Assembly (NCBI GenBank): GCA_965644295.1
Contig: CBFFRP010000486.1
Coordinates: forward strand, 1-18,864
DNA: 18,864 nt
From: Paraphysomonas bandaiensis
Taxonomy: Eukaryota > Protista > Chrysophyceae
Reading direction: 5' to 3'
Shown here: positions 290-18,864 of the stretch, one piece after another
How positions within the stretch are numbered: the stretch's first letter is position 1
How the letters are laid out: each line of letters opens with the position of its first letter
The notes under the pieces: generated by a model
Databases searched by the model: none
What the model saw: the letters and a program-made list of their open reading frames with translations, nothing else
Told to the model about the DNA's origin: nothing
Program-made: the position numbers and the translations under genes

Positions 290-1395
290 TCATAGAGAAG
301 AAATAAAAGATAAGATGTCATCAAGGGTTGCACGGTAAACATCTGGCATTGCTTTGATGAACATGAGATCACCTCCATGGATAGTTCCGCAGACAACTCT
401 AGCGCGAGCACGAACACCTGCATGGAGTAGCTTACGGTAGAAAACAAGACCCTCATCTCTAAGAGGATCAAGTTCATTAACAGAAATGACAACGGGAGGA
501 AGTCCAGTCAAATCTTCAGAAGAAGCCCAAAAAGGCCAAGCGAGAGGATTTTCGCGGGGATTTGTACCACTCGGTAGATATATTCCCGATAAGTGGAACA
601 TCTCACCCTCAGTCAGTAATATTCCATTATTTTCTGTTAGTGAAGGAAGTGAAGCTTCTTCCGGTGCTCCATTGCCGTAAAGGCCATAGATATAGGGGCA
701 CATTGAATAGATACCATCGACCTGCGCCCCCTTTCCATCCTTATATGATTTCATTCCAACTGCTAACGATAAATTTCCTCCACCAGATTCACCTGCCACC
801 ACGACTTTTGATATTCCGCGCTCAGCTTTGTGATCATGCACCCATTGAAGACCAACCATGCAGTCATTGAGTCCGGCAGGATATTGATGCGGCCCTAACT
901 TTCCAGCGGCGTTCCGAAACTCGACACCAACAACAATTACGCCCAATGCTGCAAGGTTGTTGCGAAAGGCCACATATAAAGAATCTGTCGCAGTCAAAAT
1001 CGACATACCACCTCCATGAGTATGATATACGCATGGTAGTGGTCCCTCTTTATTCGCTGGTGTAGATATGTACAAGGTAATATCGTTTCCGTCTTCACCT
1101 TTCACAGTCACAGTTTCAGTAACGACTTGCGGAACTTGTGTAAACTCTGCACAAATGGACTCCTGACAACATATGAGACTACACAATCGAAACATATCTC
1201 ACTTACAAATGCCTTCTGGTATCCAGCTTCCGCAGCATTGAAATAAGCAATTCGTTCCTCATACGTTGCAGCTCTGTCAAGTGGGCATGGAGGAGTTGTT
1301 CCAGCCAAACCCAACCCTTTCATTGCATTAACCATTCGGAAATCACCACGCTCAGCGAGGCGATGATCAACAACAACTTCGGCAGGAGTTTCCAT
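290..1395 (-). CDS. Alpha/beta hydrolase, hormone-sensitive lipase (HSL)-like esterase; 2 exons (1395-1207, 1162-290), ~353 aa
   Basis: HGGG oxyanion motif, GESGG nucleophile elbow, ELDPLRDE acid motif, and HG near the C-terminus. ORFs 1108-1431 and 290-1195 join in frame via a 44-nt GTAAGT...TGTCAG intron (1206-1163). Start ATG at 1395 is inferred. Confidence 0.9.
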
Positions 1396-1805
1396 TTTCT
1401 CACGGTACGCTTTAGGGAAGATAGATGTCACGGGGTAGGGCCTATGAACAGCAGCAGTATATGATGTGAAGGCTGTGGTGTACTTTATGGGGATAGTAGC
1501 TCTTCAAGTCAAAAAGATACCATCGATTTCCAGATCCTTTGGACGGTGCGGTGTACCTATAGGCTACATCTATACAGCAGTGTATACAATGTATACAGTG
1601 GCTGGATATTCGTGTGAGATTATCTTGAAGGGACTCTGTTCAAGGGCGTATTCCGGTATTCTTGTACTCCATGTACTGCTGTACGTACATAATAACTAGG
1701 AAAATAGCCGTTGATCAGAATACGTGGTATACAGTGTGTTGGCATGTGTTCTGCTGTGAGTCTCTCTGTGCGTATGATGTATGTGTATATGACTGTTTGT
1801 GCCAC

Positions 1806-4593
1806 ATGACTGCTGCACAGGACAGTCAGGACAGGACAGCGCTGGTAAACGAGAGGGGCATTAATTCACCACTTATCCAAACTTGTAATGATGGCAACCA
1901 AAGGCAGCATAAAGCTCATGTCCCAAACCACAGATAGCGGTCAACAATGAGGTCAAGCGAGAAGTTTTCGACAAAATCGGAAGAAAAAAATGCAATTTGG
2001 TGTCAATATTTGGAGCGGCGAGGTGTGTGTTTATCTCTAGTGGTGATTCATACTTTAATTATTGCATATGAAGGCAAGGGAAGAGTTTTCTGATGAACTG
2101 TCTGGCGGACAGGTCAGGACTGTTCACGATATCGAATCGGTCTGTTCCATGCACACAAGGAATTGATATCTCTCGACATACTGTATCTCTCAAGGCATTT
2201 TCTGAAATGGATGGCGGGAGACCTGTTGCGGGGAACGTTGATGTTGGATTCGTGGATGCAGAGGGACAAGGAGATCGCGATGTTACCTACGATGCGGTAC
2301 TGTGATTGTGTGGTAAATTATTGCGTGATACTGAATCACCTTGGCATCATGCACAAAGCAGCTATTAATGTTGCGACAGAAGGCGATCTAGACAATGCAC
2401 ACGGCGAAATTTTTGGAAATCTACATATAGTCTTCCGTGACTGGCGGTTTGAGGGCGATGAGAATTCCGTTCTAAATGACATTTTTCGTGAGGAACGTGG
2501 CGTAGACACTGCGTCAGCTGTACGGAACCAGATCCGTCGCTCTGTGCGGTCCAGTTTCAAGTCAGTGAACGTGTGGCTTCTGCCTCCGCCCACCAAGGAC
2601 ACGCAGTCGCTGCGGACTGAGCTTACAGTGCAGGGTACATCCCCTGCTTTCAGAGAAAAGTTGCGCGAGCTTAGAGGGACCCTGGTATGAATTTGACGTG
2701 TTCTAAAGCGTTGTTTTGACCTGTTTGCAGGCTAAACAAATGCAGGAGCCCACCTCATTCAATGGTAGACCGCTCAATGGTTACAACATGGCTTCTCTGG
2801 TAGAGACGGTTGTAGGGGTTCTCAACGCCGGAAAAACTATTAGTCCGCTTCCGGCGTGGGTGTCTATGTCATCGGCCGAGGCGACGAAAATACAACGCAA
2901 ATGGCAGGGGTATGTTAGGGAGAATCTAAATGCAGAGGAACAACACATCAAGGAAGCTGCCTCAAAATGTGATTCATATTCTGCTCAATTTATTACTGCT
3001 GCAGAATTACAGCTCCGGGCCAACGAGATCGTGGAGGAAGCCTGCAAACAATATATTGCTGAAGTAGGAGAGACAGTGGGGGATCTTGAAGGAGATCTGG
3101 AGGATGAAATACTGACTCCCCCACTACGAGAGTTGGAGAGGACTTCGAGCGATGCGTTGGCTGGGCATATTCGGTTTTATAAAGAAGTACTTTATGAGTG
3201 GTTACGTTGCCTGGTAAAAGTGACAATGGCTGACATTCAGTCGTGCATGGCTGCTACTGCTCATGAAATTCTACCAGTCGATGATATTACGGAGCTTGAC
3301 CTCGCCATGAGTAATATTTGTAGTCACATTGAGAAAGGAAGCACTTTGCTGCGGGCTGGAGAGCTTTATGGCGTAGGCATGGAGGAGTTACAGGAGTATC
3401 AGTCGCAGTTGGATGCCTGTGCAGAGATGCAGATAAGAATATATCGGGATGAAAATGGAAAACTTGTTGAGAAAGTAAGGCAGGATGTGTCGAGGCTTCT
3501 TGAAGGGAAAATCAAAAACATTCGGGGTGGGGCAGAGAAGTTATTAAAAGATTTTGAAGAGGAAGTGAAGCGAAACCATGTTCCTCTTTGTAACTTGACT
3601 CGACAGCTAGACGAAAGGTTCCATATAGAGAAAGACAGTCTAGAAGTGGATATACGAAACACTATCAAATGTGATTTAGATACCTCTTCACGATTAACAC
3701 GTGCAGTATCGCAGCTAGAAGAAGAGAACCAAAAGCTCAGGGTGTCCCTCAAAAATTCCCATTCAACGGTAGCGATTGCACAACTGCAGAAATTGTCAGG
3801 GAAGTTGACAACAGAGTTGTGTTCAACATCTCTTTCGCTTCTGGATAACGGCCCCGTTGATGATTGTGCAGAATTACAGCAAAAGTTTGGGTATATGGTA
3901 GATGAGTTAAAGGCCATTTTATTAGAGGAGGGTGAAAAGTGGGGTATTGATATGGACGGTAACTTCGAGGAGATGGTAATAAAGCACATATCGGAGGGAA
4001 GTAAAGGAGCATACAACGCGCTTTTGACTTGCAATAAAAAGTTGCTTGCAACAACACGACAGGCGAATCAAAACAAGGAATCCCCTTCGAAAAGCAGAAA
4101 GAGAAGTATAAATACTGATTTGAATGAAGCAAGCAGAGAGGAAATACCTGTGTCTTCTAACAGAAACATCAATGTTTCGAGTTTGCATGACGAAACCGTC
4201 GATACAGGAATGGAAGATCGTAATCCTGCCAAAAAGGCGCGGAGAATGACTACAAAACTAGATAAACCCATTACCATCTCTATGTTAGAGGGCCCTACTG
4301 CCATGGATATTGACGAGGATACTTCTTTAAATAATGTCGACCGTGCAACGAGGATAGAGAGAGAGAGACAACGGGCCAAGGAATGGGGTAAAAACTTGTT
4401 GCAGGGTAAAAACGCTACAAAGGGGGGCGCCAATAAAAAACCCGTTGACACGGTTATTTCAGAACCAAATGCCAGTAGTCTAGATGCTGTAAAGAGAGCT
4501 GCTAGGCAGAATATTAGCGCCCGGGGCGAAGAAAGGTCACGGAAGCTAGGGAGAAATTCGTCTGTCGGGAAGAAAAGTAATGTGAAAGAATAA
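1806..4593 (+). CDS. Guanylate-binding protein/atlastin-like large GTPase with long helical and low-complexity C-terminus; multi-exon, possibly disrupted near 2297-2330
   Basis: The spliced P-loop reads VSIFGAARQGKS (intron 2023-2073). Also PCTQGI (G2), FVDAEGQGD (G3), LHIVFRDW (G4), and intron 2685-2730 leading into NGRPLNG...VLNAG and a helical region. The first exon (1806-1844, intron 1845-1933) is tentative. Confidence 0.8.
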
Positions 4594-5456: not shown

Positions 5457-6660
5457 ACTTACTTACGTTGAAGTGTACAATGGTACTCTGTATATATACT
5501 AATTATGTAGAGAGTGATCTTTTTTTACCTTCTTATATAATATACACATAAGTGAAAGACAGATATACATAATAATAGAGAGAGATCGTAATATATATAT
5601 TATATGACAAACATAATATATTATAAGGATTGCATGATAAAGGTATGTTTATATACTGAAGTCGATATAACCTTGTTGATTGCATGATAAATGTTGATTC
5701 AATGTTTGAAGTTCTCACTCTTGTGCACACTGTATATGTCGCCAGCACTCGTTATCCATGGAAGTTATCTTTCTACGATCAAGTTTTAACCGCTGTTTGA
5801 TCGTTTTGAGTAATCCTACGTCAGTCAGAGTTCCTTTAATTGCCAGTAATATGGGATGGTATAATCCATCAATTCATCAAAGCGGGATATTCATTACTCG
5901 CACTTAAAACACTGAATGATGTGCTGGCGCATATGGGTTCAATTGCTGTCGTCATTCAAGTACTGAGGATCACATACACATCATATACACCCCTCATATG
6001 ATGCTCTCACCTCCCCCCACAATAATAACACATGAGATCAGTGTATGTTCATATATGTGACCATCCATACGCATAATATCTCACAACCCTATTAGGCTTA
6101 ACAAGAGGGAAGAGAGAGCAGATGAATCATATCCATCAGATGAGAATCACAGAGATGAGCACACAACAAGAGAAAGGAGGGACGAGACTCTTCTCTGAGC
6201 CCTCAGGGAACAGCAGTCAGAGTAATTTATTCAATCTGGAGAAAGTAAACAATATAATAATATTATGCCAACGTGGAAAAAAAATCCCACGTTTTTGACG
6301 TGCATTCCTTGTTAAAACTAGCTAGTTACTAGTTGAGTGCTAATAAATAGTTCTCTGCATTCAGTATAAAAATGGGCTCAACTAATAACCGTTTGATTGT
6401 TATGTATACGTGAATGAGCATTGTATAAACATAACACCACACATAATTATTAAAGAGAAGAGCAACAAAAACATACTCTAAGGGGCCGAAAAAGGCTCTG
6501 TGCAGTCAGCATATCTATTCAGACTGTTTCGACGGCCTCTGTTCACGTCAGCACAGAGAGCAACACACACACAGCTGAAACGACTGCAAATGAGATCTGT
6601 CATCGAATATCTGTCTATTCATGTATTTGGCAGCCCTCCAAAGTTTGTATTTGGTGTGAG

Positions 6661-7488
6661 TGTAACGCCGAGGCGTCAAACTAATCACATACCACAAGAC
6701 TAGTGAGGTTAATATGCTACAAGGGGAGCTCTAGTGGATTGTGTGTGTATGTACAGCCTGCATCTTATCTTCGGATGAAGACTCACTTCACTCTCGGATT
6801 ACAAGTGCCGCTGTTTTTGCTGTATGAGCAATAGAGATATCTGATTGGTGTACTCGGGTTATACTGTTTTGTATACTGTATGAAATACAGGCTGTATTGT
6901 CTATATGTATATGCTGTATAACGGTTATGGAATACGGACTGTACTTGGTGGTGATGTATTTGCAGAGTGTGTCATGTGACACGAGGTACATAAGTACGCA
7001 ATGATGCAGTTATAGGTACATGTAGGGACTATTACTATACAGCTGCTGTATTATGTATTACTGCTGAACGCTGATTGGCTAGTCACTGCATTTTTGGTCT
7101 GTGGCTGTTGAGTTGGTTTAAGGCTCTTCCTATAGGCCTCTACGTGAATCTTCCAGAAGGTGGATATCTCCACAAAATTGGCGAAATGTTGCTGAATTTT
7201 CTGCAGAATATTGTTCTTTGTTCTCTGCTGTGTTTCTAGACAGTTCATAGAATGTAAATGGTTCTGTATGAGTTGTTTGTGTTCTATGTGCTGTCATTAT
7301 TATGTTACTAGCCTTGCTGATAACACGTTTGAGGAGGTGTCTTCAGATAAGTGCTTGGGGGTGCTCAGGCAGTTGCAGGGCAAAGTAATAAGCATTTTTA
7401 TCTCTATATTTGCTATTTACTTGTTACATTGGTACATTCATTTCACATACATAGCTGCACCCGGTGTCATACCCCGGGTTTGGTTACA
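6661..7488 (+). repeat. Candidate 5' LTR (~828 bp)
   Basis: Starts TGTAAC and ends GTTACA (6-bp inverted termini, TG...CA), lacks a convincing coding region, and ends ~105 nt before the gag ATG. No second copy is present to confirm it. Confidence 0.6.
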
Positions 7489-7593: not shown

Positions 7594-9189
7594 ATGGAAC
7601 ACAATAATCTTCAGGAAATGCTGCAATCTTTTATGCAACAGCAACAACAAATGATACAGCAGACGTTGCATCAGAATGCACAAGTGGCAAGACAAGAGAT
7701 GCAGAAGAACAATCAAGAGTTGCGGCAAGAAATTCAAAAAATAAACCAAGGATTGCTGGGAAGGTTCGAGCAAGTTGACCAACGAGTGGATGCTTTGATA
7801 GAGGAGAAGCAAAAGAGCGATCAGAAAGTGGAGACTGTGCTGGAAGATATCAATGCCAGACTGGAAACTATGGAAGCTAGAACAGCCATCCTGGAAGGAG
7901 AGAAAGAATTAACTGATCAGCAGGACAGGGCAATTACCCACCCGAGCGCATCTAGAGAACGCAAAACTATTTTCATGAAAGAGGTTGAAGAGACTACACA
8001 TCTGGCGGAGAGAAGGCAAGTAGTTGTGCAAATGCCTACTCCCTCTCATTCGCACATATTCCTAAATTCAATGGACCTGGCGGACTATGCTCAGTTTGTG
8101 ACCAAGTGGTTTGACTGGCAGGTCAAGTATGGGGTGAGACTAGAGCCGGCCCTCATCGTTTCCCAAAGCATTCGAAATCTACTAATTTTCAACAATGATA
8201 TGACGGAATCTCAGTTTCAAGAACTCTCACCTGAACAATTTTGCAAGCTGATGGCTAAAGAAACTCAAGTACTGTCCAAGCTCGAGTTTTCCAACACGTT
8301 AAGGCATGCCCTAAGAGACATCAAAAGGTTAAACTGGGAAAGAGTTAGACCGAATACTCACGAGAGGTTCTTCCAAGGCATTCTGAGGCGTAGAGACATA
8401 TACTTAAGGACCTTCAGGATCATTATGGAGAACAATAGCCAGTATTGCCCAGACCTGGAGGGCAAAGACTTCGGTTTAGCACAGATATTCCTAAATTTGA
8501 TTGATGATACATACAACAAGACTGTCTTGGCCGAAATACCCAAGGTCAAGGCAGGCAACTACTCCAAGGTTGAAGAGTTCCTGGAAGCTTATGTTAAGAA
8601 GGCTAAGGAGCACTATGACACGTCAAAGCGTATCAGACTGGTGCCATACAGTGGTGAGGACTATAGTATGAAAAGTCATGACATGCGCAAGAACAAGCCT
8701 TACTCTTCACAGGAAGACAAGCAGAAAGGACACGAGACAAAAACTCACCCGATGACCAGTGGGGAAGCTAAGCCTTTGCACCAGATAAATGACTTCAGTG
8801 ACGATGAAGATCAGGAGCCACGGGAATCCAGAAATGCAGAACCAGACTCAGATGACGACTCTGACTATGAGGAAGATCCAAAGAGCACTGCAGAAGGTCA
8901 TGACACGAATCAGCGCTACGAGGACAAAGTGGACCACCAGACGGCGAGAGATCAGGACACAGACTACAGAAGGCTACAAGCCATAGAGGCATCTGCTACT
9001 GGGTTGGGATGTGTCAATTTCGCCTTGTATGGGAAGTGCTTTCGAGGAGACCAGTGCAAATATGCCGGGAGTCACAATGAGAAGTGTGCAAAGGACTGCA
9101 GACAGTGGATGATGAAGAAGTTGGCGACGATGGAACGAGATGGTCCGGGACCTCCTAAGATAATGAAGCGTGATCCAACGAAATCTTGA
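7594..9189 (+). CDS. gag: Gag-like protein (531 aa): N-terminal coiled coil, acidic linker, C-terminal CCCH-type zinc finger
   Basis: Lies between the LTR and pol. Q/E-rich heptad N-terminus; C-x8-C-x5-C-x5-H at 9010-9075. Confidence 0.75.
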   Translation: MEHNNLQEMLQSFMQQQQQMIQQTLHQNAQVARQEMQKNNQELRQEIQKINQGLLGRFEQVDQRVDALIEEKQKSDQKVETVLEDINARLETMEARTAILEGEKELTDQQDRAITHPSASRERKTIFMKEVEETTHLAERRQVVVQMPTPSHSHIFLNSMDLADYAQFVTKWFDWQVKYGVRLEPALIVSQSIRNLLIFNNDMTESQFQELSPEQFCKLMAKETQVLSKLEFSNTLRHALRDIKRLNWERVRPNTHERFFQGILRRRDIYLRTFRIIMENNSQYCPDLEGKDFGLAQIFLNLIDDTYNKTVLAEIPKVKAGNYSKVEEFLEAYVKKAKEHYDTSKRIRLVPYSGEDYSMKSHDMRKNKPYSSQEDKQKGHETKTHPMTSGEAKPLHQINDFSDDEDQEPRESRNAEPDSDDDSDYEEDPKSTAEGHDTNQRYEDKVDHQTARDQDTDYRRLQAIEASATGLGCVNFALYGKCFRGDQCKYAGSHNEKCAKDCRQWMMKKLATMERDGPGPPKIMKRDPTKS

Positions 9190-9273: not shown

Positions 9274-11481
9274 CGAAGTTTCCTGCAGGCATGCGGCATA
9301 GGCAGGAGACTATGGACTGCCGCACACACTAAAGCGAGGATTGAAGTAGTAGATAGAAAGAATATGGAAATAAGAAGAGACGTAGAGACATCAGTACTGT
9401 TCGACACGGGAGCCCTCTGTTCGAACTACATCAGCATAAGGAAGTTTAGAGATATCGAGAAACACATGCATACTAAGGACATAATACACAAGAGAACAAA
9501 AGTCGGATTAGCAGACAATAAGACAGTGGCATGGAGTGACATCATGGTGAGACTTACCTTGAAGTTCGAGGATCGTTCACTGAGCGCGGTTTCATGCAAA
9601 TACTCTGGAGAATTTATTGTGTTGGACATGAAAGATAATGAGATCATAATTGGGTTACCTGCGATACTAGGGGACTTGTGGGACTTCTTTTGCTACAGTC
9701 TAAAAGGAAATGCAGAAAGAAAGATTAGAATGAGCGTGGCAGATGCGGAGGAGGAGATGTTGCAGTTCTTGGCATCCATGGACAACATCGTGCATCCCTG
9801 GTCAAATAGTATGGAGGGAGAGCCACCGGAAGAAGAAATGTCTCCGTTGCCAGTGCAGTTTGGTGAGGTGATCAAGTTTTTGGGAAAAAGCAGAGAAGAA
9901 GCCATTCAGGAATTCAAAGATTTGATGCCCGAGCATATAGCTGAAGATTTTGACAAAGCAACACCTGTTCGAGAACTGTTACTAAATGAAGGTTTGAAGG
10001 TTTTTGTACCAGAGACATGGACTGGTATCAGAGGTGTTGAACCATTAAAACTCACCTTCAAAGACACTTTACCTCAGCGACTCAAGCCTAAAGCCAGACC
10101 CATAAACCCAAGACTCTGGGAGGCAGCAGAAAAGGAATTTTTGAGACTGCGTGGATACATGTACGAGAAGAGTAGGTCACCATGGGCGTCTTGCTTGGTT
10201 GTTGCTCCCAAGGCTACGAAGCCATTCATCAGGTTCTGTGGTGATTACGTAGAGATCAACAAGCATATTCACATTGGTAACTACACTATACCTAATATCA
10301 GGCACCAGTTGGATCGTATCATGGGGTACAAGGTATTTTTAGACATAGATCTCACAAATGCCTTCCACCAAATCCCATTACATGAAGAGACGGCGGAGAA
10401 GCTATCCATTCAAACTCCTTGGGGTCAATATCAACCACGATTCATGCCTGAGGGAATAGGTCCTGCTACTGGCGTTTTACAAGAGACTGTCAATGCATTG
10501 TTTTCAGACTTACCCTGGGCCATAGTGATTTTCGACAACATTTTGCTTCTGGCAATGGATTACCAAGAGGCATACGAGAGACTGAAAATCTTCATCGAGA
10601 GATGCATACAACACAATGTTATTCTCAAGTTTGCAAAGAGCTGGCTAGGGTTTGGAGAAGTCAAGTTCTTTGGCTACAGATGTAAGCACCAGAGCTTTGA
10701 GTTGACAGAGGATAGAAAGGCTGCATTACTTGAGATACCTTTTCCAGAATCCGGGAACAGATCCAAGAAAATCAGATCATTATTAGGATGTGGAGTTTTC
10801 TTTGCACCTTTTGTGAAAAATTACAGTGAGAAGGTTAGACATTTGACAGATCTTACGAAACCTGAATTCGACTGGTCAGATGAGTCAAAGTGGGAGCACG
10901 ACTATAGACAGGAATTCGAAGATTTTAAGAAGGATTTGCAAGAGGCATGTGCACTTCATTACCCAGATTACGAGCTGCCATGGGTGATAAGAACTGATGC
11001 GAGTGAGATAGGTGTTGGCGGAGTCCTCATTCAAATCAAGACACATGCAGACGGTTCAAAGGAGGAGCAAATTATAGCGCTGATCTCCAAAAGATTCTCT
11101 AAGCAAGCACAGAAGTGGGATACTATTGAGCAGGAGGGATTTGCAATCTACTATGTGGTCAAGAGACTGGCGTATTATCTAATCGGGAAGGAGTTTTTGT
11201 TGGAGACGGATCATAATAACCTGAGATGGATAGAAGCGTCAGAAGTACCCAAGATTATACGATGGAGAATTTACCTGCAGTCATTTGTGTTTAAGGTGAG
11301 ACATATCCCTGGAAAAGAAAATGTACTGGCCGATACACTCTCCAGACTCCATCTATGTGTTGCTGAAGAGGACGAGCATGAAGATTGTCATACAGCGGAA
11401 GGGCTATGCCACCTGTGTAATGAAGATGACGAATTTGAGGAGGAAAAGTTGGAATATGAACAGCGCATGAGTACCTTATGA
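9190..11481 (+). CDS. pol: Pol polyprotein: aspartic protease, reverse transcriptase, RNase H; in frame with gag after a single TGA; no integrase
   Basis: Protease LFDTGA. RT: SPWAS, RFCGDY, LDIDLTNAFHQI, MPEG, IVIFDNILL, VKFFG. RNase H: TDAS, EQEGFAI, ETDHNNL, NVLADTLSR. The frame is open from 9190, 58 codons upstream of the ATG at 9364. Confidence 0.93.
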   Translation, partial: LLQGLSGPPVVSETISSHSRKACRKALERSFLQACGIGRRLWTAAHTKARIEVVDRKNMEIRRDVETSVLFDTGALCSNYISIRKFRDIEKHMHTKDIIHKRTKVGLADNKTVAWSDIMVRLTLKFEDRSLSAVSCKYSGEFIVLDMKDNEIIIGLPAILGDLWDFFCYSLKGNAERKIRMSVADAEEEMLQFLASMDNIVHPWSNSMEGEPPEEEMSPLPVQFGEVIKFLGKSREEAIQEFKDLMPEHIAEDFDKATPVRELLLNEGLKVFVPETWTGIRGVEPLKLTFKDTLPQRLKPKARPINPRLWEAAEKEFLRLRGYMYEKSRSPWASCLVVAPKATKPFIRFCGDYVEINKHIHIGNYTIPNIRHQLDRIMGYKVFLDIDLTNAFHQIPLHEETAEKLSIQTPWGQYQPRFMPEGIGPATGVLQETVNALFSDLPWAIVIFDNILLLAMDYQEAYERLKIFIERCIQHNVILKFAKSWLGFGEVKFFGYRCKHQSFELTEDRKAALLEIPFPESGNRSKKIRSLLGCGVFFAPFVKNYSEKVRHLTDLTKPEFDWSDESKWEHDYRQEFEDFKKDLQEACALHYPDYELPWVIRTDASEIGVGGVLIQIKTHADGSKEEQIIALISKRFSKQAQKWDTIEQEGFAIYYVVKRLAYYLIGKEFLLETDHNNLRWIEASEVPKIIRWRIYLQSFVFKVRHIPGKENVLADTLSRLHLCVAEEDEHEDCHTAEGLCHLCNEDDEFEEEKLEYEQRMSTL

Positions 11482-11643
11482 AAAAAAAGAGAGAGGAGAG
11501 GGGGATTTCACCCCCTGTACAGTGTTAACCGTGACCATGAAAACTATTAATATACACCAACCCTTGCCCCTATGGTATTACTCTTTATCACGTACAAGTG
11601 CTTCCAATATTGTACATTACATTTTTTTATACACTTTTTTACA

Positions 11644-11732
11644 TAAAAAATGTAGTGTCACCTTTCACAATAAAAAATGCAAAAAAAATCTTATTTTCAC
11701 AAATTCTGTAACAGTATACACTACATTTTTTA
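11644..11732. repeat. Perfect 15-bp inverted repeat (TAAAAAATGTAGTGT / ACACTACATTTTTTA) near the left end of the viral segment
   Basis: Arms at 11644-11658 and 11718-11732, with a 59-nt spacer. Confidence 0.8.
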
Positions 11733-12013
11733 CAACATTTTTCTTTAAAAAAAACTTTTTTCTAAAAAAATAAATTCCAAAATAAATATTTTCAACAAAA
11801 ATGTCAAAAAAAATGCAATCAAAATAAAATAATACTATACATATTAACCCCAGCGATCAACCGACCCTATTAACAAACGATAGACCAACCCTGACTTAAA
11901 CACCGAACAACTACAACAGATAGACGGAACAATAGACCTGTTTAACACTATATATAGACATGCCGTATTTTACTCCCTATTATCCTGTAAAAAAATATAT
12001 ACACTTATTATAT

Positions 12014-12187
12014 ATGCCGAAGAATCAAGCCCAAGTAAACAAACTGATTAATAAAGCTTTGAGAGCAACAGTAAACAAAGCTAAACAAGACGTAACCAAA
12101 CACGCAGAGAATAAGCGTAAGGAGGTAGCTAAGAAGATAAACAAAAAGGCTACATCTGTGAAGAAAAGAATTAAGAAAAAGCTTTAA
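12014..12187 (+). CDS. Small Lys-rich basic protein (57 aa), possible DNA-binding/core protein
   Basis: MPKNQAQVNK...KKRIKKKL. The ATG at 12014 sits in the TATATATG context shared with neighbouring genes. Confidence 0.6.
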   Translation: MPKNQAQVNKLINKALRATVNKAKQDVTKHAENKRKEVAKKINKKATSVKKRIKKKL

Positions 12188-12224
12188 TTTATTTTAAATT
12201 ATTATATAACACATATTATATATA

Positions 12225-12800
12225 ATGAATCTATTCCCTAGAAACAAATCTTTTATCTATAATTTTACATCTATGAATTCTGATACAGTCGGCGATACAC
12301 CTGAAGATTGTACAATTATATTACCGCCATTACCTTATAATGGGGAATGTGATTATTATGAAGTTGAATGTATCGGTTTTTATATAAACTATGAAAGCTT
12401 AGATATATCAGCAATTGCTTTTAATGGTTGCAATGATTTAAATTTTATTGCGGAAAACTTTTCAACAGAAAGCAATTGTATTGATATTTGCGAAAATCAA
12501 TTTCTTGTTTGTGGTACGCATTGTGATAGAAATAGATCATATGCAATATGTGATGATAATAAATGTAAAGTAAAAAATACTAAAAATCCAACTACATACA
12601 GCCTCATAACTAATACAGGCATAGTAAGAGATAAACCCTTTTGTGTATATGGTGATGAAGAGCCAAAAAAGATACGATTTCGTTTATATGATGAAAATTT
12701 AAAACCCTTGAAAAAAGAAGTTGTAAATTATAATGGTAAACAAACACACTGGACGGTGTCTTTTTATTTTATACCAATGTACGAAAGCAGTTTTAAATAA
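12225..12800 (+). CDS. Putative minor capsid/penton-like beta-rich protein, paralog 1 (191 aa)
   Basis: SFIYNFTSMN...EDCTIILPPLPY...IRFRLYDENLKPL...HWTVSFYFIP. Aligns by eye with the 14679 and 15224 ORFs, and the C-terminal pattern resembles PLV pentons. Confidence 0.6.
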   Translation: MNLFPRNKSFIYNFTSMNSDTVGDTPEDCTIILPPLPYNGECDYYEVECIGFYINYESLDISAIAFNGCNDLNFIAENFSTESNCIDICENQFLVCGTHCDRNRSYAICDDNKCKVKNTKNPTTYSLITNTGIVRDKPFCVYGDEEPKKIRFRLYDENLKPLKKEVVNYNGKQTHWTVSFYFIPMYESSFK

Positions 12801-12840
12801 GTACGTATATACAAGTACGTATATATAAGTACGTTTATCT
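12799..12840. repeat. Three copies of a 14-bp unit AAGTACGTWTATMY
   Basis: Units at 12799, 12813 and 12827. Confidence 0.8.
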
Positions 12841-12890
12841 GTATCAAAGGCCATCAAATGGCTAAAAAAACAAAAAAAAATTGTGCAAAA

Positions 12891-12915
12891 TGGCCCTACT
12901 GGGGTTCGAACTGAG
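12891..12915 (-). other. tRNA 3'-end-like fragment (T-loop/box B plus acceptor 3' strand, resembling tRNA-Ile) followed by oligo-T
   Basis: The minus strand reads CTCAGTTCGAACCCCAGTAGGGCCA-TTTT, with spacing that fits tRNA positions 53-73. No 5' half is present and the T-stem is degenerate. Confidence 0.4.
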
Positions 12916-13106
12916 TATGACGACCTCAGTACAGTGCACGCGGCTTTTTTTTTCTTGGAAATGTCCGCGAACGACTTGAGAATATTATTATAATATAAAC
13001 CTATTTTTTTATTTATACAGTGTCTACATCACACTGTATAACTTATCTGCAATGCAGTACAATGTACTTATTTTATCAAGCAAAAAAATATGTACCATAA
13101 TATATA

Positions 13107-14693
13107 ATGAACCAAATAAATACCGTACAGTATTCCACTATAAACGGACTGAAGAGCCTAGATTTAGACGAGCTGTATACAGGTGAGCTATCAGCAGACA
13201 ACCTGAACGCGAATAACATATACTTACAGAACATAGAGACCAACAACATAACCATAGACACAGACATAATTATGAACTCAGGGGCCTATATATATACTGA
13301 TGGCGTGCAGATATCGGACATAGAATTAAGCTATTTGAATAATGTAAGTGATAATATTCAAACACAGATAACGAATAATGATAATGACATAGCAGACATA
13401 GAGAGCGACATACTGGCGATTGAAAGCGATATATTAGCCATATATACTGATGTAAGTAACAACACGGCTGATATATTGATTAATGCGGATGATATCGCGA
13501 CCTTGCAAACTGATATATCTGATATACAAACTGATATTATAGCCATGCAATCAGATATAAGTGTAAATGCCAATGCTATATATAACAATGATATTGACAT
13601 TATGAATATACAGAATGATATTACAGATATACAAACTGATATTACAGATATACAAACTGATATTACAGATATACAAACTGATATTACAACTATACAAACT
13701 GATATATTGATTAATACCAATGATATTACTGATATGCAGACTGATATATATAATAATACTGTTGATATATCCAACATACAACACACATTAACACCCTTAT
13801 CATATCTTGGTGGTGGTTATGATGATTTAACTATTACAAGTGACTTTTTAATGAATAAAAATTATGGCTTATATAATATAACAGGTACAGGCGCAGAGTT
13901 AAGATTATTAGGTACCAATTGTAGATTAGATATTAGAGGTACGAATGGAGTTATAGAATTCCCAGATAATACAGAACAAGCCACAGCGTTTAGCACTGAT
14001 TATAGTACATTGTTAGACGATATAAGCCGCAATGCTAATGAGTGGGCATATCCTACCAACACGATTTTAAAAGCTGTATCAGGTGGTGCAATAGATGAAA
14101 TACGTTGTGATCACTTTAATTGTTATCAAAAAATAGAATTCCCAGACACCAGTATACAAACCACAGCTTTTACATCATCAGATAGAACAAACTTAGACAC
14201 ACTGACCAGTAAAAAGCAATGTTACTGGGAAGAAATAGACGGCCCAGTTACTTTTTTTTCATCCATGTCATATAATACCACCTATCAAACATCTAGCGGA
14301 GGGCACTATATGACATCATCAGAGCTAAGTACAACACCTACAGGTGGTGATTCAAATATGATTGATGTAAACGGTTATATTCAGTATACAGGGCGTTATA
14401 TGCTGCAGGTTTCATTTGAAATTATGGGTATTAAATCATGGACAGATATAAGAGCACGTGTATTAGTAAAGCAAAATGGTACACTGGATAGAGCAACCCT
14501 TTATGGTCCTGGTGTATGGGATGCAAATCGTGGTAGTGTTTCCACTGTAGGATGTACTTTAGCACCATTAATATTTACTATAAATGATGTTGCTGATAAT
14601 TGGACTTTTGAAATTCATACATATAACGATTTCCAAACTGTGGGATCAGGTTCTATATTTTGGAAAACCCATATAGATTTAGTTCAACTCTAA
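13107..14693 (+). CDS. Putative virion fiber/spike protein (528 aa)
   Basis: ELSYLNNVSDNIQTQI fiber-type motif, a long Ile-heptad coiled coil (DIQTDIT)n, two IEFPDxxxQxTAF repeats, and a beta-rich C-terminal head. Confidence 0.78.
   Translation: MNQINTVQYSTINGLKSLDLDELYTGELSADNLNANNIYLQNIETNNITIDTDIIMNSGAYIYTDGVQISDIELSYLNNVSDNIQTQITNNDNDIADIESDILAIESDILAIYTDVSNNTADILINADDIATLQTDISDIQTDIIAMQSDISVNANAIYNNDIDIMNIQNDITDIQTDITDIQTDITDIQTDITTIQTDILINTNDITDMQTDIYNNTVDISNIQHTLTPLSYLGGGYDDLTITSDFLMNKNYGLYNITGTGAELRLLGTNCRLDIRGTNGVIEFPDNTEQATAFSTDYSTLLDDISRNANEWAYPTNTILKAVSGGAIDEIRCDHFNCYQKIEFPDTSIQTTAFTSSDRTNLDTLTSKKQCYWEEIDGPVTFFSSMSYNTTYQTSSGGHYMTSSELSTTPTGGDSNMIDVNGYIQYTGRYMLQVSFEIMGIKSWTDIRARVLVKQNGTLDRATLYGPGVWDANRGSVSTVGCTLAPLIFTINDVADNWTFEIHTYNDFQTVGSGSIFWKTHIDLVQL
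13617..13705 (+). repeat. 21-bp coding tandem repeat (GATATTACAGATATACAAACT), ~4 copies
   Basis: Units at 13617, 13638 and 13659 are identical, and 13680 is a variant. It encodes the fiber heptads. Confidence 0.92.
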
Positions 14694-15155
14694 TGTTGCC
14701 GGTTCAGTAATAACCGGACTAAACAACAGTGATATACACCAATATGTAGTATCAGAATCATCCACAACGCCACTTAATGGTGTTAAATCAGGCGCATATA
14801 ACCTAAATCTTATCCTTCTTTGTTGTCGCATATTTTTAACCCTAAATATGCTACCTTCGCCGCTAGTCATTTGTGATACAGTCTGATGTGTTAATAAATA
14901 AGATATTATACACTGATTAGAATCAAGACCTTGATAATAACCATTTTCTGCTAATTCATCAGCAACTAACAGTGTATATTTTGGCATTGTTACTTGGTCC
15001 ATGCTTTGACAATTCATAATAAAGCCTGTGCATTGTACATTATAATACTCATAATTATATGGTAAAGGTCGTAAATCTATATAACAATCTTCGGCATCTC
15101 CTAAAGCTGCATTAGCAGAAGAGATAGTATAAGTAAAACTATGCATATTTTCCAT
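14679..15155 (-). CDS. Putative minor capsid/penton-like protein, paralog 2 (158 aa)
   Basis: SFTYTISSAN...EDCYIDLRPLPY...IRFRLYAPDLTPL...YWCISLLFSP. Its 3' end overlaps the fiber gene by 15 nt. Confidence 0.62.
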   Translation of the reverse strand: MENMHSFTYTISSANAALGDAEDCYIDLRPLPYNYEYYNVQCTGFIMNCQSMDQVTMPKYTLLVADELAENGYYQGLDSNQCIISYLLTHQTVSQMTSGEGSIFRVKNMRQQRRIRFRLYAPDLTPLSGVVDDSDTTYWCISLLFSPVITEPATLELN

Positions 15156-15184
15156 TATATATATAATTATTATAGAAAATAAAA

Positions 15185-16132
15185 TTAATTTATTGCCCTA
15201 ATAATGCACGTTATATAATAATATTATGTTGTTTCACCATTATCAATATCTGCATTAGGTACTTCTTCACCTATAAAAGGATAATACATTTTAAACCGTA
15301 TATATCTCTGTTGTTTCATATTGGATATTTTAAATACTGATCCATTACCAGCAAAATAATTAGGATTATCTGCAGATTTTATATAAGGTGCAGCGATTAA
15401 CATCCTGTCAGTATATTTATAATAACCACTGTACCCATTTTCAGCCCAACCAAAAGCATATAAATTAATATACCTATACTGACCAGTATTTAAGGAGTCA
15501 GCATTTATTTTAAAGTTGATGACATCCACAAAATAGCTATTGTAATTATCATTAATCGTTGGTAAAGTAATATAACAATCATTAGCACTACCCACAGCAT
15601 TTACACTTGTAATTGTGTATGTGAATGAATAATTATTTTTTATATATCTTGGAACCTTATCCCTAATAGGTGTTAAACTTAATATTAATAGCCAGTGCTT
15701 TAAATATCCGCCATTGGCTATTACATCCTGTTCAAATCCTTCAACATTACGCATAGTAAAACGTATAGTTTTATTATTGAAGTTTTTAACGACATAATGC
15801 ATATTACTTATATTATTAAGTAATCCTGTCCTATGGTCTGATAATTCGGACGCAATTATAGGAGGTATGATAGCTTTATATGAGCTGTTATTATGTGTAC
15901 TAAATCCCGATTCAATAAAATCTTTAGCCTCTAAAACGATAGCCGATGATGGAGGATGTGATAACACAAGACTGGACGAATTAAAGAATATAGGACAGCA
16001 TATAAAATATTCAACGTCTGACGGTAATAACCCTAACATTGGTATTTCACAGTCAGCATTATCACCGCCCCATATCATATTATTTGTATCAATCACATAT
16101 GTAAAAGTTTCATTTGTATAAAAGTCTTTCAT
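15185..16132 (-). CDS. Two-domain penton-like protein (paralog domains 3 and 4) with an apparent premature TAA at 15224-15226
   Basis: Domain 1 is TFTYVIDTNN...ADCEI...IRFTMRN...HWLLILSLTP. Domain 2 is SFTYTITSVN...NDCYI...AENGY...IRFKMYYP. The frame continues YYYITCIIRAIN* after the TAA. Confidence 0.62.
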
Positions 16133-16150
16133 TAATATAAGAATAGATAA

Positions 16151-16903
16151 TTATATACTATCAATTTGTAATAATTTAAAATTTTTTCGTATCTCATTTT
16201 CCTTTAAATATAAGTCTAGATGATTATAAGGCTGACTAAAAACATATTTATATATAGCTTCCAACTTATCGGGTTCATCTATTAACATTTCTTGTTTTAT
16301 TATACTCCACTCCTCGGGATTTGGTTTAAAAAGTGATACATGTGTTAAAATACGTCTTAATTCCATTGGTAACATTCTAAAGGTTTGAACCAAAAACACT
16401 ATATATAAATTTGCATGTCTGGCAACATTCATAATTTTCTTTAATGCGTGTTCTATTTCATAATCTTTTAACATGGCTCCGAAATCATCAATTACAATAC
16501 AAGTGTGTTCACATTCTACATCCATTTCTATACATTCTTCACGTCGTTGTAAGGCATCCTCATGAATATCGTGTAATAGGTCAGGTGTTAATTCATGGTG
16601 TATATTTTCATGGTCTTTAAATGGATTGCTTTTAGCCGAATTAAATGAAGTAGAATTTACTATATAATGTACTTCGTCAAATTTTGCCCTTAATAACTTC
16701 TTGGATTTAAACAGACTTAAAAATAATGATGTCTTCCCGCATCCACCTTTACCACATATAGCCCATATAGTCCCATTCCTCCGTGGCAAATTTGGGTTTA
16801 TATCATCTATATATACTCCGAAATGTTCTTTAATCGGCTCTGTCTCTGGTAAATCATTATTAATTTCAACTATATTATATTTATTTTTCTTTTTGCTTGG
16901 CAT
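16151..16903 (-). CDS. A32-like (FtsK/HerA superfamily) viral DNA-packaging ATPase (250 aa)
   Basis: Walker A GKGGCGKT, Walker B CIVIDD, arginine finger ARH, then the IVFLVQ motif. Size is typical of Polinton/PLV/virophage ATPases. Confidence 0.9.
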   Translation of the reverse strand: MPSKKKNKYNIVEINNDLPETEPIKEHFGVYIDDINPNLPRRNGTIWAICGKGGCGKTSLFLSLFKSKKLLRAKFDEVHYIVNSTSFNSAKSNPFKDHENIHHELTPDLLHDIHEDALQRREECIEMDVECEHTCIVIDDFGAMLKDYEIEHALKKIMNVARHANLYIVFLVQTFRMLPMELRRILTHVSLFKPNPEEWSIIKQEMLIDEPDKLEAIYKYVFSQPYNHLDLYLKENEIRKNFKLLQIDSI

Positions 16904-16918
16904 ATAATAATATACTAT

Positions 16919-16934
16919 AAAAAAATATTTTTTT
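16919..16934. promoter_or_regulatory. Palindromic A7-TA-T7 element, candidate bidirectional promoter
   Basis: 16-bp perfect palindrome within the 51-nt gap between divergent ATGs. The AAAAAAATAT half-site also precedes the 12014 and 13107 ORFs. Confidence 0.5.
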
Positions 16935-16954
16935 CTATATTTATATATATAAGC

Positions 16955-17500
16955 ATGGAAGAAAAAGACGTTTATGAATCCGATATAGATAATATTAAGA
17001 CTAGTGAGGACGAAGCACCATTAACAAAAAAGAAGGTAGGACGTCCCAAAAAAGAACCAGTTGAAAAACCAAATAGGCGTAAAGTGCGATCAGAAGCACA
17101 AAAGAAGGCATTTGAGAAGGCACAATTAAAGAGAAAGGAGAAATTGGAAGAGAAAAAGAGAGAGAAGGAGGAAAGATTAGCGGAGATATGGGCAAAAAAA
17201 CAAGAAGAGAAGAAGAACAAAAAGCCTGTAGTAGAAGAAAGTGAGAGTGAGTATGAGGAGGAGGATGAATATGAGAGTGAGACAGAGAGCGAAGAAGAGG
17301 AAGTTATTTATAAAAAGAAGAAAAAGAAAGCAAAGAAGCCCGTTAAAAAAGTTGTATATGTGTCAGAAAGTGAGACAGAGAGCGATACAGAAAGCGATGA
17401 GTCAGAGGATGAAATTCAATATATTCATATGCGTAAACAAAAGCAAAAGCAACAAGTGAGACAACAACCCGCATTTAATCCACATGACTATTTTTATTAA
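16955..17500 (+). CDS. Highly charged Lys/Glu-rich protein with AT-hook-like motif (181 aa)
   Basis: KKKVGRPKK, a helical RSEAQKKAFEKAQLKRKE stretch, and alternating acidic (ESESE) and basic blocks. Confidence 0.75.
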   Translation: MEEKDVYESDIDNIKTSEDEAPLTKKKVGRPKKEPVEKPNRRKVRSEAQKKAFEKAQLKRKEKLEEKKREKEERLAEIWAKKQEEKKNKKPVVEESESEYEEEDEYESETESEEEEVIYKKKKKKAKKPVKKVVYVSESETESDTESDESEDEIQYIHMRKQKQKQQVRQQPAFNPHDYFY

Positions 17501-17533
17501 TTATTATTATTATTATTTTGTTATATTATAATA

Positions 17534-17565
17534 ATGGTGAAAGAATTCATATTAACATTAGATGT
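17534..17565 (+). pseudogene. 5' stub of a viral ORF (MVKEFILTLDV) cut by an LTR insertion
   Basis: ATG in a TATAATAATG context like the other viral genes. Sequence character changes at TGTAAG (17566). Confidence 0.5.
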
Positions 17566-18864
17566 TGTAAGGCAATAACAAGCCACAAGTTGATAGTAAT
17601 GATAGTGTTATTAACTTGTTTTATCAGAGGTTATCTGTGATAATAATGACTAGCATTCTAATCTATCTTCTATCACAGACTACACCTACAGCTCACTGCT
17701 TGGGCACATATATATGCCCTTACTCTATACCAATCCACTGTACATATTGGACTGTACATATCCTACACCGTATTGTCATCATACACCGTATAATGGTATA
17801 CCGTTACCCTACTGTAGCTGGCTGTCTACACTGTATATATCCTGTATACTATACATCCACAGTATAGTGCAATTAACAGCAGTATACTATCAAACCAAGC
17901 TTTCACTCCAATGACAGCCAACCTCCTATACGGGGATGACAACACACTCTCCTATGTTCAGTCCAACGCCTGATCTCCTTATCGTCCATAAAATATGAAC
18001 CTATAAATAAATATTAAATACCGTGACCTCAATCGGCTATTGCTCGACTAAGTCACAACCGCCCCCCCATAATGCTCTGTGTCATAGGCTTAAACCCAAA
18101 TGATACGCAGGCCTTTGCCTATAGACAACAAAAAGTGCTCTGTGTCATAGGCTTAAACCCAAATGATACGCAGGCAATTGTCTATAGACAGAATAAAAGA
18201 ATGCTCTGTGTCATAGGCTTAAACCCAAATGATACGCAGGCCTTTGCCTATAGACAACAAAAAGTGCTCTGTGTCATAGGCTAAAACCCAAATGATACGC
18301 AGGCAATTGTCTATAGACAGAATAAAAGAATGCTCTGTGTCATAGGCTTAAACCCAAATGATACGCAGGCCTTTGCCTATAGACAACAAAAAGTGCTCTG
18401 TGTCATAGGCTAAAACCCAAATGATACGCAGGCAATTGTCTATAGACAGAATAAAAGAATGCTCTGTGTCATAGGCTTAAACCCAAATGATACGCAGGCC
18501 TTTGCCTATAGACAACAAAAAGTGCTCTGTGTCATAGGCTAAAACCCAAATGATACGCAGGCAATTGTCTATAGACAGAATAAAAGAATGCTCTGTGTCA
18601 TAGGCTTAAACCCAAATGATACGCAGGCCTTTGCCTATAGACAACAAAAAGTGCTCTGTGTCATAGGCTAAAACCCAAATGATACGCAGGCAATTGTCTA
18701 TAGACAGAATAAAAGAATGCTCTGTGTCATAGGCTTAAACCCAAATGATACGCAGGCCTTTGCCTATAGACAACAAAAAGTGCTCTGTGTCATAGGCTAA
18801 AACCCAAATGATACGCAGGCAATTGTCTATAGACAGAATAAAAGAATGCTCTGTGTCATAGGCT
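17566..18864 (-). mobile_element. 3' end of a second LTR retroelement: candidate 3' LTR 18057-17566 (~492 bp), PPT ~18058-18068, internal tandem array
   Basis: The minus strand reads GGGGGGGCGGT then TGTGA...TTACA, the PPT-TG...CA arrangement. No coding domains are in the window. Confidence 0.6.
18072..18864. repeat. Tandem array of a 129-bp dimer (63-bp + 66-bp related subunits), 6 full copies plus a partial copy, continuing past the window
   Basis: Dimers start at 18072, 18201, 18330, 18459, 18588, 18717 and 18846 and are nearly identical. Confidence 0.98.

Follow-up and report, generated by a model that had tools for sequence, protein, structure and literature searches.

A truncated Polinton-like virus in Paraphysomonas bandaiensis carrying four paralogous domains of predicted penton-type fold, two of them in tandem

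Several described viruses carry more than one kind of penton, and it is with these that we compare a stretch of 18,864 nucleotides from the chrysophyte Paraphysomonas bandaiensis (contig CBFFRP010000486.1; hereafter the window, meaning the whole stretch) in which a fragment of a Polinton-like virus (PLV) holds four paralogous domains of about 150 amino acids (aa) around a putative fiber gene. PBCV-1 (Paramecium bursaria chlorella virus 1) has penton P1 at eleven of its vertices, the spike vertex being taken by P1v1 (PMC9617893), the tectivirus PR772 builds a 3+2 heteropentamer from P5 and P31 (PMC6750898), the penton of Singapore grouper iridovirus (SGIV) is a crownless single jelly roll (PMC10090177), and two penton copies occur in some Trimcap B viruses (10.64898/2026.06.19.733378) and in some adintoviruses, for which insertion-less pentons are also reported (10.1101/2024.03.25.586562).

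The likeness to PBCV-1 is that one virus has two sorts of penton, one a plain single jelly roll and the other with an insertion, and the best structural match of the window domains is a PBCV-1 chain, 6ncl_a6. PBCV-1 is however a giant virus with two homopentamers, whereas here a group of viruses of about 20 kb encodes several plain domains, some of them fused in twos or threes. PR772 likewise has paralogous penton domains, there in a 3+2 ring and here known from genes and predicted folds, but its chains are separate and P5 carries the spike, whereas in the present group domains are joined to one another in fusion proteins and the fiber has a gene of its own. Trimcap B viruses and adintoviruses share the possession of more than one penton gene per genome, in their case as two separate copies and here as three to five extra domains with tandem or triple fusions. 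With PLVs (PMC7805220) the window virus shares integration in a eukaryotic genome, and its relatives share the module of major capsid protein (MCP), penton and A32 ATPase, while the window copy itself, a fragment of 6 kb, lacks MCP, canonical penton, replicase and integrase. Both duplicate pentons and penton rings of mixed make-up are thus already known. In the available parts of the literature, including PMC12220804, 10.64898/2026.10.13.758929, 10.1101/2022.07.28.501842, PMC11071308 and PMC7805220, supplements aside, we found no fused two- or three-domain accessory pentons, and the fused accessory penton repeats appear to be new, as do more distant viruses with a probably related repeat adjoining the capsid gene.

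Four paralogous domains and their predicted fold

Domain 1 is a protein of 191 aa with an internal insertion (12225-12800, forward strand), domain 2 a protein of 158 aa (14679-15155, reverse strand), and domains 3 and 4 share one tandem open reading frame (ORF) of 302 aa (15224-16132, reverse strand). An earlier sequence-only reading of the window had placed domains 1 and 2 at these same positions, while its 15185-16132 for the tandem gene has to be shortened to the ORF given here. Its claim that the four domains align with one another and share motifs is borne out by our alignment, in which F10, Y12, D28-C29, I31 and I150-R151-F152 are invariant. Four of the six pairs score above all 1000 shuffles (z 8.7-37.9), the scores of the weaker pairs, domain 3 with domains 1 and 4, are reached by 7 and 3 of 1000 shuffles, and all four domains are recovered by profile at 1e-11 to 5e-49. 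The single-domain profile was built from 89 sequences, the 158-aa protein and 88 homologs, and the family as a whole (family A) numbers 130 representatives at 50% identity; among 128 representative matches 113 contain a domain and 14 contain two. The tandem fusion proposed by the same reading is real and has some age: the N-terminal tandem domains make up one clade (support 89, 16 rows) and the C-terminal ones another (support 98, 18 rows), each including the window and its relative L002, and the fusion is therefore old and ordered.

The AlphaFold model of domain 2 (predicted local distance difference test, pLDDT, 79.5) is nearly all beta. A VIA-align search with this model against 48,161 chains returned capsid chains of jelly-roll DNA viruses at all of ranks 1-7, headed by 6ncl_a6 of PBCV-1 (Z 11.3, root mean square deviation (rmsd) 3.5, 141 residues aligned), presumably P1 judging from its size. 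The next matches were 8h2i_bG, PBCV-1 P1v1 (Z 9.7), and chains of Emiliania huxleyi virus 201 (EhV-201; 9.3), mavirus penton (8.8), Sputnik (8.7), an aviadenovirus (8.5) and SGIV (7.2), those of EhV-201, Sputnik, the adenovirus and SGIV being presumably pentons, judging from their size. The first non-viral match was a carbohydrate-binding module at Z 6.9, and TNF/C1q domains reached 5.8 against the best score of 11.3. Foldseek gave a weak result against the PDB, where the top rows had TM below 0.35 and 6ncl_a6 stood twelfth with TM 0.52, and against viral models it found unnamed adintovirus and giant-virus proteins of 160-210 aa at TM 0.55-0.63. For the tandem protein we modelled P0090, a complete relative 88% identical to the window protein (predicted template modelling score, pTM, 0.86), and each half matched the same penton chains at Z 6.0-7.9. 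The whole length of this model had no good match, and no double-jelly-roll MCP was among the matches listed.

Profile comparison points the same way. With the insertion columns of the canonical penton removed, family A aligned to the penton core by HHalign at 93.6% (E 2e-7, 136 columns), while five control profiles covering MCP halves, ATPase, insertion and reversed profiles all remained below 1%. The score rose with profile depth, from 2.7% (15 sequences, 6 pentons) through 60.6% to 72.4% for the whole penton and the 93.6% for its core. The domain profiles found nothing meaningful in PDB sequence searches, nor in Pfam or PHROGs. We thus predict that the four domains are eight-stranded penton-type single jelly rolls homologous to pentons, which agrees with the fold proposed by the sequence-only reading. 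On these models the previously unannotated family A gains a penton-type fold assignment, and a second family, described below, is linked to it.

The viral identity of the block was proposed by the same reading and is supported by its ATPase gene (16151-16903, reverse strand), which matches Pox_A32 above the Pfam cut-off (E 1.4e-14) and in a quick tree of 120 rows groups with the capsid-linked ATPases of L002, L007 and L009 with support 99. This grouping rules out a cellular origin of the gene. A metagenome scan with the window ATPase yielded 15 loci, five of them long enough for comparison (L002, L007, L009, L010 and L012), and all five have a gene of about 243 aa (penton) and one of about 450 aa (MCP) after the ATPase; the capsid gene expected to accompany the element is thus present in the relatives. 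In both loci tested the penton is above the DUF5901 cut-off; it also has a weak match to P1v1 (E 0.042). The MCP of L002 narrowly passes Capsid_N (24.9 vs 24 bits), that of L012 has no match, and the MCP profile matched no PDB chain. These Capsid_N and DUF5901 matches hint at PLV groups related to nucleocytoplasmic large DNA viruses (NCLDV). The relatives also carry helicase-like genes. Neither canonical penton nor MCP left a trace in the six frames of the truncated window copy, and IMG/VR scans with the ATPase and with the 158-aa family found no relative. As the closest relatives have a separate insertion-bearing penton and an MCP, the accessory domains are extra pentons, and the idea that they are the sole penton of the virus is ruled out. 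Of the duplicated vertex module that had been proposed, the penton paralogs stand, but they are not the main penton of the virus.

Between the single-domain genes lies a putative fiber gene of 528 aa (13107-14693, forward strand), so named from its layout: an N-terminus common to five relatives, a coiled coil of 21 heptads at residues 76-222 and a variable, lineage-specific C-terminal head, for which a sequence search found only three near-identical heads. L002 combines a fiber gene with a tandem gene of 308 aa and a single-domain gene of 150 aa, L012 has one single-domain gene, and in the window, L002 and L012 the accessory domain genes flank the fiber gene.

Domain counts in related viruses and the make-up of the vertex

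A scan of IMG/VR with the MCP confirmed 104 loci, of which 80 were retained. Family A was found in none of these at E 0.01, with one weak match at 0.007 when filters were off. Instead the 80 loci bear another repeat of about 170 aa, family B, which HHalign aligns with family A over some 120 columns at 75-79%, against 0.9% for a reversed control, and which on this sequence comparison is probably related to it. Among named Atlas clusters, DUF5901 (0.95, 12% of members) and Sputnik V18/19 (0.94, 52%) come nearest to it. Extra penton-like domains seem to occur throughout the sampled branch and are not special to the window element.

After 34 loci truncated by contig ends were dropped, 46 could be counted. 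A two-domain and a three-domain protein (2+3) occur together in 30, a single domain in 7, 1+2 in 4, 1+1 in 2, 1+2+3 in one, and none in two, where a partial domain does lie at the end of the locus; no locus has only even-numbered proteins. Every pattern observed can close a five-membered ring. The 2+3 loci, such as L036 (11215-13811, proteins of 340 aa and 517 aa) and L055 (10067-12700), have the two genes as a conserved pair directly after the MCP, unannotated in PHROGs, and form one clade (29 MCPs tested, 52-100% identical, one short ORF left out). L050, L052 and L089 lie inside this clade and have one single-domain gene after the MCP instead, so that the five-domain pair seems exchangeable with a single-domain gene; the sequence beyond that gene is ample only in L050, amounting to 1.6 kb in L089 and 0.9 kb in L052.

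These single-domain family B genes encode 217-240 aa on the opposite strand directly after the MCP (L050:7800-8465, L052:3529-4179, L089:3520-4236), and a fourth such gene, L094:5568-6287, adds to the domains of its locus (1+2+3) where the other three replace the pair.

We consider it somewhat more probable than not that the window holds a truncated integrated PLV copy whose four domains are predicted insertion-less penton paralogs, likely forming mixed five-domain rings at the capsid corners alongside the canonical penton of the relatives. By analogy with PBCV-1, the canonical insertion-bearing penton would occupy one vertex type, as does the spike-holding P1v1, and the plain accessory domains another, as does P1. 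Fusion would fix the order of domains around the ring, as 2+3 in the distant relatives and, for example, as 1+1+1+2 or 1+2+2 in the window, and a fixed order of subunits may break five-fold symmetry in a set way, which recalls the 3+2 ring of PR772.

A number of observations weigh against mixed rings. The counting pattern suggests a mixed five-domain vertex ring on the strength of one clade and an indirect homology link: because the 2+3 loci form a single clade the number five is a single evolutionary observation, and family B is tied to pentons only indirectly, its HHalign score against the penton core being 0.5%. With four domains in the window and three in L002, a five-membered ring would need repeated subunits. 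The Z scores of the tandem halves lie below 8, in the range that the tool rates as possibly just a common arrangement, and the only matches spanning both domains of that model were C1q-type trimers (Z 4.7-5.2) at a poor rmsd of 6.6-6.8. In the window copy domain 4 is cut short and lacks its last strand, since the in-frame stop at 15224-15226 falls before it, and one contig of sequencing run X7 (depth 326) skips 12193-12808, that is, the 191-aa gene. The total of three given by 1+2 in L002 and in four IMG/VR loci also counts here.

That total is equally what would be expected if the penton-derived domains sat on the trimeric fiber, as an adaptor of three-fold symmetry or as a cap that binds receptors, or were stacked as a turret on the canonical penton, with 1+2 or a three-domain protein as a pseudo-trimer, an explanation that we take seriously and yet find doubtful. 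The C1q trimers, the 1+2+3 of L094 and the position of the accessory genes on either side of the fiber gene all fit it, as does the faster divergence of the domains, which are 31-33% identical to those of L002 while the ATPase is 68% identical. The best fold matches are however vertex pentons, well above TNF/C1q domains, the commonest pattern is 2+3 with no single-domain partner, and family B genes usually lie directly after the MCP.

It is less probable still that each single-domain paralog forms its own homopentamer at an alternative vertex, the fusions being exapted or dispensable and no ring mixed. PBCV-1 uses two homopentamers and no mixed ones (PMC9617893), seven loci have only one such gene, and the contig without the 191-aa gene is also in line with it. 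No ring of five can be closed by a two-domain protein alone; the tandem is nevertheless old with its domain order kept, and its model packs confidently, both of which speak against separate homopentamers.

The viral fragment and its mobile-element setting

The viral block is a truncated fragment of about 6 kb, set in the pol gene of a gypsy-type retrotransposon and cut on its right side by another repeat. The retrotransposon, on the forward strand, starts with a 5' long terminal repeat (LTR; TGTAAC...GTTACA, 6661-7488), recognised by its sequence and raised contig depth and by the polypurine tract that precedes other copies. It is followed by a gag-like ORF of 531 aa (7594-9189), considered gag from its position and with a C-terminal CCCH-type zinc finger whose zf-CCCH match is below cut-off, and by pol (9364-11481) with a protease motif, reverse transcriptase (RT) and RNase H (RVT_1 and RT_RNaseH matches). 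LTR, gag and protease-RT-RNase H thus stand in the order of Ty3/gypsy elements; within the window this copy has neither an integrase following RNase H nor a 3' LTR, and we found no second LTR copy and no long inverted or direct repeat there. Where pol meets the viral block, GC content drops, 0.45 giving way to 0.30.

Contigs from four sequencing runs, whose depths are not copy numbers, cover 30 of 30 bins of the window stretch with many variants, and window-like sequence is also present in marine metagenomes. We infer that the gypsy and viral blocks are two multi-copy families, since in all four runs depth over both is several times that of the flank at 5500-5914. Their junction is probably peculiar to few copies, because the main pol contigs match the window up to 11478 and not from 11507 on (11479-11506 being masked); other gypsy pol copies run on into sequence absent from the window. 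Contigs of three runs join from other sequence at about 17562, where depth jumps.

That gag-pol and the viral genes form one chimeric mobile element replicating as a unit, with viral genes in place of the integrase, is very improbable: pol does stop where the AT-rich block starts, pol and viral-gene contigs are of a similar order of depth in four runs and a polypurine run also precedes other copies of the left segment, but the main pol contigs stop at the junction (the 761 further bases of X3 record 9, depth 49.7, being unmatched even at 80% likeness), X15 depth is 1787 on pol and only about 12-39 past the junction, and the window holds no second LTR. The truncated PLV copy is in itself ordinary nested mobile DNA, unable to make particles from the genes of the window alone.

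The AT-rich non-coding segment at 11482-11980, with a polypurine run, a small hairpin and the motif TTTCACCC, is the probable left end of the virus, as this motif occurs twice where the PLV genes end in L002. An LTR-like end of another retroelement would also fit, being compatible with the polypurine run before TG and with an X15 contig that ends in poly(A) at 11847; in X3 the segment has about twice the depth of the viral interior. The hairpin after the polypurine run (11482-11525) varies between copies while its stem is kept, with loops containing TTC, and the end of the element thus seems to carry a conserved structural signal. Next comes a small lysine-rich protein (11960-12187, forward strand), putatively a DNA-binding core protein; in L002 a basic gene of 83 aa adjoins the tandem gene, and no sequence match between the two was detected. 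Near the small basic gene, the non-coding stretches 12860-12960 and L002:7340-7550 each have a GGTTCGA-like box, hairpins and a run of T or A; ARAGORN matched neither, and there was no tRNA and no credible Rfam match in the window.

To the right of the ATPase a K/E-rich protein (16955-17500, forward strand) is divergent from it as in the relatives, with N-terminal BLAST matches in L002, L007 and L009. The next viral gene begins at 17534 on the forward strand, resembling by eye the N-termini of genes at the same position in L007, L009 and L010, and is broken off after about ten codons because a different repeat starts at about 17562; the missing viral genes therefore need not lie just past 18864. 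This separate high-depth repeat (17563-18864) is possibly the 5' part of another retroelement, and it leads into a nearly perfect tandem array with a period of 129 bp (6.2 copies, 99% matches), the unit of which consists of two related half-units.

A further repeat is indicated by raised depth at 5915-6660, immediately upstream of the LTR. In X15 the gypsy pol (9364-11478) has about 100 times the depth of the viral left end, which, if this run is RNA, would mean strong transcription of the retrotransposon family. Two host genes in pieces, an alpha/beta hydrolase (Abhydrolase_3; 290-1431, reverse strand) and a coiled-coil gene (2093-4593, forward strand) whose upstream pieces look putatively GBP-like, are spaced in a way that suggests a compact protist genome.

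Significance for small jelly-roll viruses

Many PLV genes are still annotated as hypothetical, and how small jelly-roll viruses break five-fold symmetry, in seating a trimeric fiber or in packaging DNA at one vertex, is poorly known. A broader proposal, which we offer tentatively and would not call probable, is that a widespread PLV branch has a hard-wired asymmetric vertex in which fused repeats (2+3, 1+2+2) would make a pseudo-pentamer with five differing positions beside the ordinary penton, seating the trimeric fiber or marking the packaging vertex, and in which a single homopentamer gene could replace the five-domain pair. If the mixed-ring reading is true, the two-domain and three-domain proteins should form a 1:1 ring.

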